Of a DNA stretch of 24,944 bases, positions 3,704 through 12,546 are shown piece after piece. This stretch comes from Candidatus Thalassarchaeaceae archaeon (GTDB lineage Archaea; Thermoplasmatota; Poseidoniia; Poseidoniales; Thalassarchaeaceae), in the NCBI GenBank assembly GCA_030747675.1, contig JASLKH010000043.1:1-24944 (forward strand), given 5' to 3'. The notes beneath the pieces were generated by a model. The model was not told the origin of the DNA and did not search any database. It worked only from the letters and a program-made list of their open reading frames with translations. A program made the translations under genes and the position numbers. Every line of letters starts with the position of its first letter. Position 1 is the stretch's first letter.

Positions 3704-3801
3704 AATTCACAGCCATAGAACTTGGTTCTTCAACCCTCCGACGTAGAATAATCAGATAGTTAGCCATTCACGGTCCATAGGACCGCTAGAGTTTGTGTGG
3801 C

Positions 3802-3813
3802 AATGGTTATACC
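3802..3813 (+). promoter_or_regulatory. Candidate BRE/TATA element AATGGTTATACC; SD GGAGG at 3850-3854
   Basis: TTATA at 3807-3811. GGAGG lies 7 nt before ATG 3862. The identical 12-mer occurs on the minus strand at 10033-10044. Confidence 0.5.
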
Positions 3814-3861
3814 GCTTTCATTACTGTCATCAAGATACCGATGCCCAGTGGAGGCCTTACT

Positions 3862-6573
3862 ATGAATGATGAAAATGATGATGGAAGTTTACCACTACCC
3901 CCGCCCGGAATGCCACCTATGCCACCCACGCCACCAGGAATGGACGAGGCGCCACCTGCACCGCCCGGCCTAGATATGGCCCCACCTGCTCCACCTGGAA
4001 TGGACGAGGCACCACTCGCACCGCCGGCTCCACCTGGAATGGACGAGGCACCACCTGCACCTCCGGCTCCACCTGGAATGGACGAGGCACCACTTGCACC
4101 GCCGGCTCCACCAGGAATGGACGAGGCACCACCTGCACCTCCTGAAATGGATGACTTAGGTGATCCGATGGATTTGCTAGCAGAAATGACCCCTACAGAA
4201 TCCGACGCCGATGAATCTGAAGATGGTGTTGAAAATGTAGAAATTGAAGATAATGACTCTTCTTTGGAACTAATAATGCCAGTTGATGACTCTGAAGAAG
4301 AACCAGTTGTTGAAGAAGTAACACCTTCTCCTGAAATCGCAGCACCTTTACTGGAAGGAACAAGAGTACGGGCGTATTCTGAAGTCGACACAATCCATGG
4401 TGACAAATTAGTTGCCACACTTTCAGAAGTTGAAAATTCAACCCTTGACCCATCCGGGAATGTCGTCAAGCAAGAGGTAAATGGTGTCCTAAAATTACAC
4501 AACCCAAGTGGAAAGGACCGCCTATGGGATATCGAAGTAGAACTCTATTCTGCGGATTATTCCGATATTAGTGCAGACTTACCTTTCGCAGAACTAGAGG
4601 CTGATTCTGACCAAAGTGTTGAATATTCAGTTGAAGGCCCACGAATGCTTTGTTTAATGGAACGTATAGATACTAACCCATCTCGAAATCAAGAGCGTAG
4701 TCTTTCGGTTGTAAGAGATAGTGAAGCGCAAGACATTCATCTTGAAATTGAGGTTCAAAATGTAGGCCCCGTGACTCTAAACAATATTGCCGTGACTCGT
4801 ACATTCCCTGTTGAAATTCAAGTCGGAGAAAGTGAGGATTATGATAAACAAGGCGACACATTGACATGGAATGTTGGCCGATTAGGATCCGGTGAAAGCC
4901 GTACACTAAATGTACCAACTGCTGTCACTGCTGAAGCCATTGATTCCATTAACGCAGGTTCAGCTAATGCAACTTATTCTGCTGAAGCTACATTGTCAGG
5001 AATGGGTGTTCAAGGAATTGATGCCTTATGCCGAGGATTTTCTTACATGGTGGTTGATGAAGATGAACGCCCTGACAATTATCGATGTCAAGCTGTTTTT
5101 GAAAATAGGTCTTCATTCGCGGTTGATTTGACTAACCTTCTTGTTCAGCAAACAGGGGCAGATGAACCCTTGTTCGCCGTAGAGGATGTGCCAGATGATG
5201 TTCTACCAGATGGACGTTGGGAAAGTGATGTAAAAGTTGTTCATTCAACAGACAAACCTACTTTTAGTCAAGAATTACTTTACTCTGTAATACCAAGAGT
5301 TAGTTTAGCCACAGAAGGAAGTATTGACCTTAACTCGCATGTTATTGAAGTCCTAGAGGCAGAAATCTCGAAAAGTTACTCCATAGATGTTCTGCGGCAT
5401 TATCGTGAAACAGAATTAATGGCAACAATGGAAATTTCAAATACAGGATCGGCAACAATTAATTTACTAAGAATTACTGATGATGTCCCAGGTATTTTCA
5501 CTGCACCTACTGCTGATTCAGTTAAAGCCAGTATCGATGGAAATGAACTTGTGCGGGACCAATTCAGAATTGAAATGAAAGATGGTATTTCACTAGAAGA
5601 AAATCGAGTATCACCCGACGGCCCTGGGAATACAATGCTAATCACTGTTGGCACAAAGGGCCCAATTGGTTTGGCACCAGGTCGTAAAATGACAATCTCA
5701 TATCCGCTAGTCGCTCCAGACCCCAGCCCTGCAAACGATGTGGTCGCTGCACCTGCAAGAATTGATTTCAGTGCTGAACGATTTGGACCTGTTGCAACAA
5801 GAGGTTTGAATGTCGTACCGGCAGTCAGAGTTACCCACAGGAAAGTCAATTATGACTCTGGTAAGGAAGTGTTCCCAGCAGGTGGCGCAGGACGCTATGA
5901 AGCCATGATTATGTTCAACAACCGCGCAGACTCCGCTTTGCAAGATGTTGTCATTCACGACGTTATACCTGGCGCTTTTGAGTTGACAGAGTGGAATGTT
6001 GTATCATCCACAGGCTCAAAAATAAAAGCCAAGATGACTGAATCAAAGCACAAAGATGGCAAGAAAATGTCATGGAAAATTGGAACTGTTTCACAGGGTG
6101 AAAGAATAGAAGTTTGTTATGAATTCAAAGGTGATCCTGAAACCGGTTTCAAAGTTAGCGATGCGCAAGAAGTGCATGGAATCGATGTCGGTGCCGAAGT
6201 TGAAGAAAAATTACCACCACTTGAGGATATAGTAACTGAAGAAGAAGCTGTTGAAGAAGAAGCTGCTGAAGAAGAGGCTGTGGAAGAAGAAGCTGCTGAA
6301 GAAGAGGCTGTGGAAGAAGAGGCTGCTGAAGAAGAGGCTGTGGAAGAAGAAGCTGCTGAAGAAGAGGCTGTGGAAGAAGAAGCTGCTGAAGAAGAAGCAG
6401 AAGGAGAAGATGCACTCATGAATGATGCACTTGCAAAGATCACCGGGGCTACAGAATCTAGTGATTCTGGAAATCAAGTCGGGAGCAATGATTCATGGGG
6501 GTGCCCAATCTGCGAACACCAAAACGCTGCCGGAATAACAGAGTGTACTATTTGTAAATTCACCAATGCTTGA
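3862..6573 (+). CDS. Large cytosolic multidomain protein (903 aa): Pro/acidic repeats, mu-homology-like domain, DUF11/Ig-like modules, acidic repeats, RanBP2-type Zn finger
   Basis: Long ORF with no signal peptide or TM segment. Start moved from 3793 to ATG 3862 because of the SD GGAGG. Ig-like modules carry [VI]xNxG...xxDxxP...W motifs. C-terminus is WGCPICEHQNAAGITECTIC. The CDS itself is certain; the domain calls are by eye. Confidence 0.85.
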   Translation: MNDENDDGSLPLPPPGMPPMPPTPPGMDEAPPAPPGLDMAPPAPPGMDEAPLAPPAPPGMDEAPPAPPAPPGMDEAPLAPPAPPGMDEAPPAPPEMDDLGDPMDLLAEMTPTESDADESEDGVENVEIEDNDSSLELIMPVDDSEEEPVVEEVTPSPEIAAPLLEGTRVRAYSEVDTIHGDKLVATLSEVENSTLDPSGNVVKQEVNGVLKLHNPSGKDRLWDIEVELYSADYSDISADLPFAELEADSDQSVEYSVEGPRMLCLMERIDTNPSRNQERSLSVVRDSEAQDIHLEIEVQNVGPVTLNNIAVTRTFPVEIQVGESEDYDKQGDTLTWNVGRLGSGESRTLNVPTAVTAEAIDSINAGSANATYSAEATLSGMGVQGIDALCRGFSYMVVDEDERPDNYRCQAVFENRSSFAVDLTNLLVQQTGADEPLFAVEDVPDDVLPDGRWESDVKVVHSTDKPTFSQELLYSVIPRVSLATEGSIDLNSHVIEVLEAEISKSYSIDVLRHYRETELMATMEISNTGSATINLLRITDDVPGIFTAPTADSVKASIDGNELVRDQFRIEMKDGISLEENRVSPDGPGNTMLITVGTKGPIGLAPGRKMTISYPLVAPDPSPANDVVAAPARIDFSAERFGPVATRGLNVVPAVRVTHRKVNYDSGKEVFPAGGAGRYEAMIMFNNRADSALQDVVIHDVIPGAFELTEWNVVSSTGSKIKAKMTESKHKDGKKMSWKIGTVSQGERIEVCYEFKGDPETGFKVSDAQEVHGIDVGAEVEEKLPPLEDIVTEEEAVEEEAAEEEAVEEEAAEEEAVEEEAAEEEAVEEEAAEEEAVEEEAAEEEAEGEDALMNDALAKITGATESSDSGNQVGSNDSWGCPICEHQNAAGITECTICKFTNA
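3931..4152 (+). repeat. Coding tandem repeat, 39-bp unit (APPGMDEAP[L/P]APP) x4 at 3988-4143 plus degenerate flanking copies
   Basis: Near-identical units such as gctccacctggaatggacgaggcaccactcgcaccgccg are visible in the DNA. Confidence 0.9.
6238..6399 (+). repeat. Coding tandem repeat, 30-bp unit (EEEAVEEEAA) x5 plus a partial unit
   Basis: The unit gaagaagaggctgtggaagaagaagctgct repeats with minor synonymous changes. Confidence 0.92.
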
Positions 6574-6576
6574 TTG

Positions 6577-7347
6577 TCAAAAGTCTAGTATGTCGTCAGG
6601 TATTTCGACTTCATTAGATCCATCTTTGGAATGCGATTTACCCCTCACCATACTCAAGTCTATAGATTTGGATTTGGTCTCTTCGACACCTAATAATTCT
6701 GAGAAATCAGAAATACTTGGTGTGCTGGTATCATCTAATTGGATCCCAGCCATCGACTCCACGGAATCGGACCCAAAATTGGCACTCACAAGTTTAGAAC
6801 CAGTTCGCACATCGGAACCACGGTTGGATTCGTCTGCACCGAAAGAGGCCGTGTCGAACTGATCTAATTCAGGTACAGAAGTACCTATTATCGGTGAACA
6901 CTCAAGCAGAAAATTATGCAGGATTTTGCTGCTTCTCCCATTCTGAATGAATGATTGTAAAGCCTGACTCCAAGCATCTTCCTTTCTCCCACGTGCCCAA
7001 ATGGCCTTGCATAAACCAACAGTAGCAACATCATTTGGTGCGCCTACTGCCAATGCTCGACCCCAAAGCGCCTCTGCAAGTCTATTCTTCCCCAAATCCT
7101 GAGCCAGTTCTGCAGATGATTGGGCGGCATCAGACCTTTGTGGGTGGTTTTTCAACACACTCCTGAAAACCTTCAGGGCTTTTTTATTACGGCCAAGTTT
7201 CCGTAACACCCGCCCATGCCTCATTTTGAATTCTGGCTCCCTTTTCCACCTCTTACTTGCAGATTTAAGAGTTGATTCAGCCAAAATAAGGTCTCCCTCT
7301 GTTTCCGCAGCATGCGCGATACGAAGGGCATCCTCAGGCGATTCCAT
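6577..7347 (-). CDS. Tetratricopeptide-repeat protein with acidic disordered C-terminus (256 aa; start moved to 7347)
   Basis: Helical repeats with a TPR pattern (KMRHGRVLRKLGRNKKALKVFRSVLKNHP; SSAELAQDLGKNRLAEALWGRALAVGA; GLCKAIWARGRKEDA). TTCAA lies 23 nt before ATG 7347. Confidence 0.75.
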   Translation of the reverse strand: MESPEDALRIAHAAETEGDLILAESTLKSASKRWKREPEFKMRHGRVLRKLGRNKKALKVFRSVLKNHPQRSDAAQSSAELAQDLGKNRLAEALWGRALAVGAPNDVATVGLCKAIWARGRKEDAWSQALQSFIQNGRSSKILHNFLLECSPIIGTSVPELDQFDTASFGADESNRGSDVRTGSKLVSANFGSDSVESMAGIQLDDTSTPSISDFSELLGVEETKSKSIDLSMVRGKSHSKDGSNEVEIPDDILDF

Positions 7348-7427
7348 GTCCGACCATCGACCACTATGAATTGAATCCTTCGCATCAGAGTATTGCATTG
7401 AATCTCAAGTTACAACCCGAAGGGTTG

Positions 7428-8369
7428 ATGGCGCGTCTGCCTCGCCCAGAAAACATGACAGAGGAAATTCCAGAGGATCCGGAGTTGCCGGTCGGACAAT
7501 TATTGATGCCGATAGTTATGCTAATTTTCATGTCATTTATCCTTCTAAACCCTGGTCTTCGCGATGGCATGGCTTCAATCGCTGGAGGATTTTTAGAACC
7601 TGCCCTACCCCATCATGACCGATATTTCGTCCCCACTGTACTTCTTCTCGGTTCGTCAATAATGATTGTGAATACATTGTTCAGATCGTTCTTCATGGAT
7701 CCCCTTGCACAGGCGCATCTCAATCACAGAAATCGGCAATTGAGAAAATTGATGAATGAAGCGAGGTTGTCCCGTGATCATGTGCGACTTGAAAAAATAA
7801 GTAAAATGCAATTGCATTTAATGCCCGAAACAACAAAATTACAGATGTCTATGATGAAACCAATGATGTTCACAATGATTTTTATTATTGGCATATTTTC
7901 TTGGATGTATATCATGGTTGATGATTTCAGAGTAGGTTATGTTAGTTTACCATGGTCGCCACAATGGTCATTCAATGAAAGAGTAATTATTTTCCCAGCA
8001 TGGATTGCTGCATATATCACCCTCAGTGCCCCACTGGGTCGTATTGTTGACCGCCACATTCGATTATTCAGGTACAAATCTCACCCATTAGTGACTTCTG
8101 GTGAAAAACTAGAGGAGCCTTTGTTGGTCCTTCTAAAGGAAAAGAAAACGAAGAAACAAGGTAGCCGAAGAACTCAACGTAGTCAACGAAGGATGCGAGG
8201 GAGCAAAGACAGCGGTGAGGAAGAAACTACAGAAGTGGCCCCAAAGGGCAGAAATCGAAGTCAAGCTATCTCGGGGGAAAATTGCCCCAGTTGTATCGGC
8301 GAAGATGTTGTAAGGACAAGCAATGGACGCTTGCGCTGTCAAATTTGCTTTGAGGAGTGGAGGCGATGA
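7428..8369 (+). CDS. EMC3/TMCO1 (DUF106, Oxa1-superfamily) membrane insertase with C-terminal basic region and Zn ribbon
   Basis: TM, coiled coil, then Met-rich MMKPMMFTMIFIIGIFSWMY and a last TM WIAAYITLS. It occupies the canonical archaeal position upstream of cmk and cbf5. TTGAA lies 25 nt before ATG 7428. Confidence 0.85.
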   Translation: MARLPRPENMTEEIPEDPELPVGQLLMPIVMLIFMSFILLNPGLRDGMASIAGGFLEPALPHHDRYFVPTVLLLGSSIMIVNTLFRSFFMDPLAQAHLNHRNRQLRKLMNEARLSRDHVRLEKISKMQLHLMPETTKLQMSMMKPMMFTMIFIIGIFSWMYIMVDDFRVGYVSLPWSPQWSFNERVIIFPAWIAAYITLSAPLGRIVDRHIRLFRYKSHPLVTSGEKLEEPLLVLLKEKKTKKQGSRRTQRSQRRMRGSKDSGEEETTEVAPKGRNRSQAISGENCPSCIGEDVVRTSNGRLRCQICFEEWRR

Positions 8370-10098: not shown

Positions 10099-12546
10099 TC
10101 ATTCTATCTTCCGAATTCGATTTGGTCCAATCTGAATGAATATAATAGCAAGTAGGAATACTAAAGTTGCAATGAACCAAATTATCTCCACGGTAAAGCC
10201 GTCGTCATCCGACGAAGATGTTTCAGACACTTCATTATAATCATCGGCAAATATTTCAATCGATGTCGACCAATGATTGTTGATTTCATTTGTTTCTTCA
10301 ATGTCAGAGGTCCAATCAATTTCAATTTCTAAATCGACCATGCCTGCTGCCTCGGAAACAACCCAGTCACAACTTGCGGATTCTAATGTACCTGCCTCAA
10401 CCACAGCAATTGTTGTAGTGTCAACGCTTCTACCATCGATATTGCAGCGGATAGTCACTGGTTGAGCGAGACTTCCCCCACTATTCCTAACAAATATGTC
10501 AATCGCGTATATATCTCCAGTCGAAATACCGCTCCCTTCGGTTATCAAATTCCTAATGTCAACGGATTGGACCCATAAATCAGGTAATTCTGTAGCGATT
10601 ACTGTCATTGTCTGATTGATTTCGCTAGTTCCATCAGAAACTACTACTTGGACATTGAAGGTTCCTGATGCAATAGGTGACACAAGCAGTTGTCCTGCAT
10701 AGTATGACACCCATTCATGGTTGAATGAGATTAGGATGTTCTGCGAGTTTGTATCAATATCAGAATAGTAAAAATCTATTTCAGCGGTTTGCCCTACTTC
10801 CACTGTTACTGTCAAAGGTAACGATTCCATAGTCGGGGCGTCATCATCTTCACTAATTGTAAATGCGATAGAGTCTGTCCAAGTATTCCCTGTTTGATCT
10901 TCCACTGTGATCTGTACTGCGCCAGCACCGTATGCATTAGGTTGGGGTTGCATTCGTATTTGCCCGTTCACAAAATTACCCTCTAAGAGATGTGGTGAAT
11001 CGCTCACTACAGTCACAGAAAGTGCATCGTTGGATGTATAATCATCTCCACAAGTATACAAGAAATCAAGAAGACGGCCGCCACCATCTTCAACAAAATA
11101 TTGATCCGACAGGCTTGTGCATGAGGGGTCAAGATCCCATTCAACAACATAACCGCCAGAAATTACCATTTCATCGACATTAACAACAATTGATTCAGGA
11201 CTCCCATCGCTAGACCAAAAGAATCTAGTTGAAACGCCAATATCAATCAAACCTCCTGATTCTGGTATTAAATGTCCCACTGGAATTGTAAATGTAAATG
11301 GTCCAGAAGTAATATCAAAACTCGCAATTTCTTCACCATTCATCGCGAATTTTACGAATCCAGCGCCACCCACCATCGAATTTATTGCCCCACTTATTGA
11401 ACCATTGATAGTAATGGTTGGGTCATTTATATCCACCCTTATCTCCTCAATACAACCATCTATCACTGTACCCTGAAATTTGAGGTATTTACCACTTGGG
11501 AGTATATCTTGAGGGGAGATGGAATTAAATTCCGACCAAAAAGTACCATCAGTAGACTCGGAAACTTTCCAACTTGCGTTGCCTGCAACGGTCGTATGGA
11601 ATCGTCCCCATTCTTGTTCAAACGGTTTTTCGATCGGGTCGGTTGTCCACGTACCTGAATTCGCACCAGTATTTTCAAGCCCACAAGAAGAAATTGTTAA
11701 CCCATTTACTGTACCTGTTGTAACAGCAATTGGGAAAATTGGACTTTCATCAACAACAGTAGAATGAGTAGCTTTGGCCATTTCAAAAGTGCTCCAAGGT
11801 TGCATATACCGAACCCATATCCCAATGGCATCTACTTGAACTTCAGAATCGTCTGTTCCACCCACCGAGACATAATCGACAATGGCATTGATTTGAGACA
11901 ACTCATTCCACGACCATGATTTCACTTCATCAAGGGGAAATTCCTTGGCATTATTCTGCATGTAATTGACTGCATTCATTGTGTGTGAATACGTTTTGAG
12001 GTGATGTGATGCCCCATTTGATTCAACTAATATATCGACACTGTCAGTTTGCAAACTCTCAGGTATACGGAATGCCACAATGAGGGAGGCATTTACAATA
12101 ATATTAGTTCCACCTTCTGAAATATCAAAATTTTCAACTTCTATTGTGGGGCCCTTTGACCATGCAAAACCGCCATCCGAATCGCCATCACCATCTGCGT
12201 CACAAACAGGTATTGACGATGGATTTAAACAATCAGGTGCTCCCAAACTCAAATTGTCACCTGTCCCTGAATATGACCCCCATGCAGTGAACTCTCCGTA
12301 ATTAGTTGGCCTAGAATGTGTGAATGAAAGGTGATTATCAGCAACCATAGCCACTGTGTAATCTGCAACCACCTCACTGTATGCTTTATGGGTTACAAGC
12401 GACCACTGTGATGGATTATCGAAATGTCCAGCAGGTAGCATGTCGACTTCTTCTGAGCGAATGACTGTGTCAGCACTAACACTGCAAGACAGTAACGAAC
12501 TAAGCAACAGAATTGTCAGAATCGTTGGCACTGAGTGGTTGCGCAT
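10099..12546 (-). CDS. Secreted, C-terminally anchored surface protein (815 aa) with cadherin/Ig-like repeats and a CARDB domain
   Basis: Signal peptide ending VSA-DT and Ca-binding-like DADGDGDSDG. Cadherin-like segments DDAPTMESLPLTVTVEVGQ and QPQPNAYG..QITVED. CARDB PDLWVQSVDI...VRNSG...IEETNEINN. C-terminal TM followed by the basic tail RIRK. Confidence 0.85.
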   Translation of the reverse strand: MRNHSVPTILTILLLSSLLSCSVSADTVIRSEEVDMLPAGHFDNPSQWSLVTHKAYSEVVADYTVAMVADNHLSFTHSRPTNYGEFTAWGSYSGTGDNLSLGAPDCLNPSSIPVCDADGDGDSDGGFAWSKGPTIEVENFDISEGGTNIIVNASLIVAFRIPESLQTDSVDILVESNGASHHLKTYSHTMNAVNYMQNNAKEFPLDEVKSWSWNELSQINAIVDYVSVGGTDDSEVQVDAIGIWVRYMQPWSTFEMAKATHSTVVDESPIFPIAVTTGTVNGLTISSCGLENTGANSGTWTTDPIEKPFEQEWGRFHTTVAGNASWKVSESTDGTFWSEFNSISPQDILPSGKYLKFQGTVIDGCIEEIRVDINDPTITINGSISGAINSMVGGAGFVKFAMNGEEIASFDITSGPFTFTIPVGHLIPESGGLIDIGVSTRFFWSSDGSPESIVVNVDEMVISGGYVVEWDLDPSCTSLSDQYFVEDGGGRLLDFLYTCGDDYTSNDALSVTVVSDSPHLLEGNFVNGQIRMQPQPNAYGAGAVQITVEDQTGNTWTDSIAFTISEDDDAPTMESLPLTVTVEVGQTAEIDFYYSDIDTNSQNILISFNHEWVSYYAGQLLVSPIASGTFNVQVVVSDGTSEINQTMTVIATELPDLWVQSVDIRNLITEGSGISTGDIYAIDIFVRNSGGSLAQPVTIRCNIDGRSVDTTTIAVVEAGTLESASCDWVVSEAAGMVDLEIEIDWTSDIEETNEINNHWSTSIEIFADDYNEVSETSSSDDDGFTVEIIWFIATLVFLLAIIFIQIGPNRIRKIE

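Follow-up and report, generated by a model that had tools for sequence, protein, structure and literature searches.

A predicted mu-homology domain in a putative cytosolic scaffold protein of Marine Group II archaea (Poseidoniales)

Here, we describe a gene for a putative docking scaffold protein in a 24,944-nucleotide (nt) stretch of archaeal DNA (the window; positions 1 to 24,944 of contig JASLKH010000043.1, GenBank assembly GCA_030747675.1) from a Candidatus Thalassarchaeaceae archaeon of the order Poseidoniales (Thermoplasmatota), and the evidence that the protein contains a mu-homology domain (muHD), the domain shared by AP mu, delta-COP and muniscin proteins, with which the vesicle-coat adaptors of eukaryotes dock partners. 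The open reading frame (ORF) list and translation place the gene in an open + strand frame, 3793-6573, and residues are numbered here from 3793 and not from the probable ATG. The likely start is the ATG at 3862, with a product of 903 amino acids (aa), since GGAGG (3850-3854) lies 7 nt ahead of it and the N-termini of homologues read MxDE..PPxPP. The gene, the parts of its product and the convergent neighbour are as follows:

3862..6573, + strand: scaffold protein gene (ORF list, translation, GGAGG, homologue starts)
3862..4155, + strand: Pro-rich acidic disordered arm, residues 24-121 (composition, tandem repeat)
4156..4392, + strand: acidic linker, residues 122-200 (net charge -24, isoelectric point (pI) 4.05)
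4393..5337, + strand: predicted mu-homology domain, archaeal type, residues 201-515
4729..4956, + strand: DUF11/CLIPPER-type sandwich forming muHD subdomain B, residues 313-388 (PF01345 match)
5020..5292, + strand: family-specific insert, residues 410-500 (invariant columns, alignment gap against eukaryotic muHDs)
5350..5838, + strand: third beta-sandwich, residues 520-682, like pilin and adhesin immunoglobulin (Ig)-type domains
5842..6192, + strand: fourth beta-sandwich, DUF11-like, residues 684-800 (TIGR01451 repeat, all-beta model)
6193..6417, + strand: Glu/Ala repeat spacer, residues 801-875 (net charge -40)
6496..6555, + strand: C-terminal RanBP2/NZF-type zinc finger, residues 902-921 (pattern read from the translation)
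6577..7398, - strand: convergent gene for a tetratricopeptide repeat (TPR) protein, the acidic disordered tail of which finishes with ..EIPDDILDF (TPR_16, E 3e-9)

Residues 201-800 make up a conserved all-beta core, the model of which has low confidence at its start, where the linker ends. An earlier note, made from the DNA letters and their translation, had quoted four peptide blocks from this + strand ORF as matching AP-2 mu in order, and all four lie where it put them: DKLVATLSEV...GVLKL at residues 204-235 (4402-4497), IHLEIEVQN...TLNV at 315-374, SGMGV at 402-406 (4996-5010) and RVSLATEGSIDL at 502-513 (5296-5331). The AP-2 mu fragment that it gave is exact (mu2 residues 171-202), and its block-to-block alignment is reproduced by HMMER and hhalign. 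When a family hidden Markov model (67 sequences) was searched against all PDB sequences, the best 26 matches were all muHD proteins (E 0.0095-0.17), aligned in two colinear segments that pair family profile positions 11-71 with mu4 157-217 and 150-254 with mu2 303-407. Alignment by hhalign of the 67-member family, with the scaffold protein as master, to 12 vertebrate AP-4 mu muHDs gave a probability of 75.8% and an E-value of 2.3e-5 over 209 columns (residues 196-409), and paired ATYSAEATL-SGMGVQGI with a mu strand of AP-4 mu. Within the family, PF00928 (Adap_comp_sub) is matched by 22 of the 67 members (best E 1.9e-10) and PF10291 by two. One member exceeds the curated PF00928 cut-off of 31.6 bits (P0160, 35.2 bits), another reaches 30.6 bits over profile positions 18-233 of 259 (P0147), and some of these alignments take in subdomain A as well. 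The PF00928-matching members align to the scaffold protein over its whole core at E 1e-36 to 1e-48.

Residues 195-520 were modelled alone from the 67-sequence alignment, and the resulting model (predicted local distance difference test score 96.8; predicted template modelling score (pTM) 0.88) retrieved with Foldseek a top 50 made up entirely of muHD proteins, at E-values down to 7.7e-10 and template modelling scores by target of up to 0.69. A muHD match is also retrieved with the full core model, muHD proteins head three independent structure searches, and the closest neighbours outside the family in the ESM Atlas are eukaryotic AP-3 mu and muHD clusters. The modelled domain is elongated and all-beta, consists of two sandwich subdomains and can be superposed on the muHD along its entire length, with 8-15% identity to eukaryotic muHDs. 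Both domain ends align in one rigid-body superposition, which indirectly suggests an interleaved topology, with subdomain B inside A and the last strands back in the first sandwich. Approximately 100 of the 326 modelled residues have no eukaryotic counterpart, and most of them belong to the insert at 410-500, a module of ~85-90 residues placed ahead of the last muHD strands, where the earlier note had seen an inserted Ig-like module. The insert is the best conserved stretch of the family (CRGFSY..DEDERPDN.RCQAVFENRSSFAVD); the hhalign alignment ends at residue 409, just ahead of it, and the structure alignments resume beyond it, ending at residue 515 against mu2 435.

The gene is near-universal in its order. 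More than 1,000 close relatives occur in Poseidoniales, and the muHD region is present in 133 of 151 Poseidoniales genomes, 53 of 58 high-quality genomes and 20 of 22 genera, nearly always in single copy; the gene is also single-copy in the source genome (78% complete). Among 80 sampled Thermoplasmatota genomes, full-length matches were found in all 12 Poseidoniales, in all eight members of a second family and in one further family, with none in ~30 other families. A library of 1.84 billion representatives contains 397 relatives, many of which are 575-740 residues long and align over the whole core at 22-31% identity; those with names come from Njord-, Hel-, Thor-, Borr- and Promethearchaeota, and one is labelled Korarchaeota. 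The host is a non-Asgard archaeon, as the earlier note had inferred, with relatives in both Asgard archaea and a second Thermoplasmatota family. The version in that second family (G164, G172, G179, G184, G189, G194, G199 and G203, genomes of 2.7-3.5 Mb; loci L089-L096) is 660-710 aa long and has no disordered arms. Its locus has a context unlike that of Poseidoniales, with a convergent gene of 345-392 aa that ends in a basic Pro-rich tail and a divergent gene of ~700 aa.

Asgard archaea have been reported to have genes for every functional domain of the adaptor and COPI subunits, including the mu C-terminal domain, "albeit sparsely distributed" and unfused to each other, with 44 Asgard PF00928 candidates given in Supplementary Table 3 of that study (Eme et al., 2023, Nature 618:992, PMC10307638). 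The first listed candidate shares the NxSxKxRxW and WxCxxxFxNxSxF motifs with the scaffold family, insert motif included, and by these sequence criteria the scaffold is a member of the same protein family as the Asgard candidates. The claim of an archaeal muHD is less new than the earlier note implied, since the family was already listed there for Asgard archaea; in full-text literature, no main-text report pairing muHD, Adap_comp_sub, PF00928 or muniscin with archaea was found. The scaffold and the Asgard candidates are similar at full length over a core of roughly 600 residues, and in neither is the muHD fused to a longin domain. They differ in that the host of the scaffold lies outside Asgard archaea, in Poseidoniales (Thermoplasmatota), an order in which nearly all genomes have the gene in single copy, and in that this clade adds the Pro-rich repeat arm, the Glu/Ala spacer and the RanBP2/NZF-type finger and has lost a detectable PF00928 signal. 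Taken together, the predicted fold and the family alignments support the reading of residues 201-515 as a genuine muHD, homologous to the muHDs of AP mu, delta-COP and muniscins via the archaeal, mainly Asgard, Adap_comp_sub family.

The protein is predicted to be soluble and cytosolic, with no export signal. Its highest 19-residue Kyte-Doolittle mean is 0.94, so there is no signal peptide or membrane helix, as the earlier note had read it, and all but 2 of ~110 full-length relatives likewise have no transmembrane segment or signal. The C-terminal zinc ribbon may also point to a cytosolic location. DUF11/CLIPPER surface repeats (PF01345, TIGR01451) resemble the protein in the PF01345 match at 313-388 and a weaker copy at 706-737, but in the scaffold the first sandwich is embedded as muHD subdomain B and is not an extracellular bead, and there is no signal for export. 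CnaB/DEv-IgG Ig-like domains of Gram-positive pilins and AgI/II adhesins differ from it in the same direction, the scaffold having no sortase signal and a cytosolic setting.

The earlier note also proposed a membrane-trafficking or coat-adaptor-like role, and this part of it is not supported. A working adaptor or coat component, in which the muHD selects membrane cargo and helps to deform or sort Marine Group II membranes, would fit three observations: the fold is that of cargo-binding muHDs, a disordered arm precedes the muHD as in muniscins and stonins, and an EMC3/YidC-like insertase gene lies nearby. Coat partners were searched for in five genomes of Poseidoniales (completeness of 91% or more in four), where divergent homologues may escape detection: Clat_adaptor_s (PF01217) was not found, with control genomes silent too, the sole Adaptin_N match was sub-threshold (17.6 bits) and HEAT-like, and no Arf was above cut-off. 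Unlike AP mu and delta-COP, which have a longin domain, the protein starts with a Pro-rich disordered arm, and a Pfam scan of it found no longin and no F-BAR/FCH domain. The likeness to muniscins (FCHo/Syp1/SGIP1) and stonins that the earlier note saw therefore extends to the disordered Pro-rich region before the muHD, but not to an F-BAR domain or to a C-terminal muHD, as two more domains follow it here. A comparison with the YxxPhi pocket of the AP mu1-mu4 cargo binders argues in the same direction. Thr209 aligns with mu2 Asp176 and mu4 Asp190 by both HMMER and hhalign, as the earlier note had it, and the Poseidoniales consensus likewise has Thr at this tyrosine-motif Asp position. The muHD has a net charge of -35 and a pI of 4.2, so that it has no basic surface of the phosphatidylinositol bisphosphate (PIP2) type. 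From the eukaryotic muHDs of the AP-1 to AP-4 mu subunits, of delta-COP and of the muniscins SGIP1 and Syp1 it differs by this strongly acidic surface, without basic lipid-binding patches, and by the ~90-residue insert. With no partner subunits of AP or COPI coats found in the genomes searched, a coat or adaptor function is very unlikely, and the interpretation in the earlier note is, overall, partly supported.

We favour, at a probability of roughly 60%, a cytosolic multivalent docking scaffold that has a genuine muHD at the start of its folded core (residues 201-800) and is not an AP or COPI coat subunit. In such a protein, the muHD would serve, as it does in eukaryotes, as a rigid docking platform for a partner protein or a short linear motif, and the Pro-rich arm, Glu/Ala spacer and terminal zinc finger may recruit or tether further partners; neither canonical YxxPhi reading nor acidic-lipid binding through basic patches would be expected of it. 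This reading is drawn from the failure to find coat partners in the five genomes, Thr209, the acidic muHD, lineage-limited synteny and modular fusions. The fusions occur in relatives, where the core is joined to N-terminal HEAT repeats (HEAT_2, E 6e-16), a C-terminal NACHT NTPase or long coiled coils (P0232 and P0309 of Thorarchaeota, P0237 and P0299 of Borrarchaeum, P0198 and P0226), as expected of an interaction module. The muHD is counted as a eukaryotic signature protein and, as such, links Asgard archaea with the way in which vesicle coats arose. Its near-universal presence as a single-copy core gene in planktonic Marine Group II archaea and its presence in a second Thermoplasmatota family, with no longin, adaptin or Arf partners found, indicate that the module extends beyond Asgard archaea and need not be part of a coat to function, which weakens the muHD as evidence for trafficking in archaea. 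The Marine Group II scaffold may thus offer an abundant, simple system for asking what an ancestral muHD bound.

Several results weigh against the docking scaffold. The protein itself matches neither PF00928 nor PF10291 in Pfam at E<=10 and no muHD in NCBIfam, the matches being those of its relatives. PF00928 searched against the six-frame genome translation and phmmer of the single sequence against the PDB gave no match, a clade-only profile retrieved from PDB sequences no muHD and only low-complexity matches, and clade-only hhalign against AP-4 mu gave a probability of 0.6%. The muHD match is not significant for the single sequence and becomes so only with the whole family and with the fold, and in the relatives it overlaps the DUF11 match in subdomain B, a generic sandwich. 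Because the clade gives no direct muHD signal of its own, homology of the scaffold protein rests on transitivity and predicted structure. One relative (P0233, 663 aa; 23% identical over the muHD region, E 2e-17) has a hydrophobic N-terminal signal or anchor at residues 10-28, which indicates that the module is not strictly cytosolic. No gene neighbour is common to the Poseidoniales, second Thermoplasmatota family and Asgard loci examined. The scaffold function itself is putative. As a separate observation, P0233 is possibly an exported or membrane-tethered version of the module.

Some of these results bear on whether the region is instead a generic DUF11/Ig-type beta-sandwich array with a convergent likeness to muHDs, acting as a structural or spacer protein without adaptor-like docking. 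PF01345 (DUF11) is the sole Pfam family above cut-off (42.1 bits against 24.6, residues 313-388) and is matched by 64 of the 67 family members; a TIGR01451 repeat lies at residues 706-737 (E 5e-4), a weaker second DUF11 copy; and one Foldseek run with the whole core model ranked adhesin and integrin Ig arrays first. The failure of the clade-only profile to retrieve a muHD and the anchor of P0233 would also fit such an array. Residues 313-388, which include the family-invariant Trp359 (TLTW), also align to mu2 303-407 and mu4 312-373. At the domain level, by contrast, searches are topped by muHDs only, and these align over a length double that of any single-sandwich match (single-sandwich matches span 20-326 with only ~110 residues aligned), the pTM argues for one rigid unit, relatives reach the PF00928 cut-off, with subdomain A included in some alignments, and the hhalign alignment extends over 209 columns. 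The region is thus predicted as a single unit with muHD matches in profile and structure, rather than as the independent tandem Ig domains without such matches that would have spoken against the earlier note, and we consider an array of convergent sandwiches improbable.

The Pro-rich arm contains 38 Pro in 98 residues, has a net charge of -18 and includes five PPxPPGMD repeats, encoded partly by a 39-nt DNA tandem repeat (3988-4142, 93% matches), and the Glu/Ala spacer is encoded by a 30-nt tandem repeat (6236-6398, 96% matches). Both disordered arms are thus encoded by DNA tandem repeats that are nearly perfect, with units of 39 nt and 30 nt, and orthologue ORFs range from ~760 to 1,210 aa (loci L002-L081). 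About half of 80 related loci start just 60-620 nt upstream of the core, and many contigs of metagenome-assembled genomes (MAGs) therefore seem to break in the Pro-rich repeat.

The C-terminal zinc finger fits the pattern W902-x-C-x2-C-x3-N-x6-C-x2-C921 exactly, with a Pfam Zn_ribbon_RanBP match (E 0.041, 13.6 bits) under the cut-off of 27. Its CxxC...CxxC is nearly invariant across the Poseidoniales clade, to which the finger is confined among relatives. Ubiquitin-binding NZF fingers have a TF dipeptide after the second Cys; this position reads EH in the scaffold protein, and canonical ubiquitin binding is accordingly not expected. Some RanBP2 fingers bind single-stranded RNA. The protein might on these grounds be a scaffold for RNA or protein assembly, with RNA bound by the finger and a GPN-loop GTPase, or Cbf5 and CMP kinase, as partner: the GPN GTPase gene is divergent and adjacent throughout the order, and EH replaces the ubiquitin-binding dipeptide. 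Against this reading, no GPN gene adjoins the loci of Asgard archaea or of the second Thermoplasmatota family, the finger occurs in the Poseidoniales clade alone, and adjacency to the GPN gene is not specific, since the whole ~12 kb block that includes the scaffold gene is syntenic across the order. An RNA or assembly function appears quite unlikely.

The gene order at the locus is UbiA / OTCase / GPN GTPase <- -> scaffold -> <- TPR / EMC3-like / CMP kinase / Cbf5. In the product of the convergent gene, the TPR domain is basic and the disordered tail acidic. Across the order (loci L003-L081) its tails diverge and an acidic-aromatic C-terminal motif is kept, in the variants ..IPDD[IL][LF]DF(D), ..DDPFxD[WF]PD[ILM] and ..DILDFEL, and Poseidoniaceae have at the same place a shorter protein (139-164 aa) that ends ..EEWPQWKLPF or ..HPFPPWEFPL. 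DPF/DPW and WxxF-type motifs, which the C-termini of these proteins resemble, are bound by eukaryotic muHDs and appendages. By its adjacency and this resemblance the neighbour is a candidate ligand of the scaffold, and the muHD, or else the two sandwiches that follow, might dock its conserved acidic-aromatic C-terminus, an idea that we regard as a long shot. A complex prediction that paired core residues 185-800 with the 50 C-terminal residues of the TPR neighbour (score 0.02, mark 0.32) speaks neither for nor against it. If such docking occurs, recognition of adaptor-accessory motifs of the DPF/WxxF type would exist in non-Asgard archaea, before or independent of vesicle coats, and the muHD would be older than the Asgard-eukaryote lineage or have been exchanged between Asgard and Thermoplasmatota archaea. 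Close kin of the TPR protein have a further upstream motif, [DE]xxELL[GD].

Elsewhere, the two genes downstream of P0160 and P0150 are unrelated. Three contigs with the Poseidoniales syntenic block carry bacterial names (L046, L054 and L070: a Deltaproteobacteria bacterium single amplified genome, a Rhodobiaceae MAG and a Salipiger bermudensis MAG), probably through binning or sorting contamination. An EMC3/TMCO1-like (DUF106) insertase gene (7371-8369, + strand), which overlaps the start of the TPR gene divergently, is conserved beside the scaffold gene in every locus with enough flank, and a gene for an 815-aa CARDB-domain protein (E 5e-12) lies at 10099-12546 (- strand), within the order-wide syntenic block.

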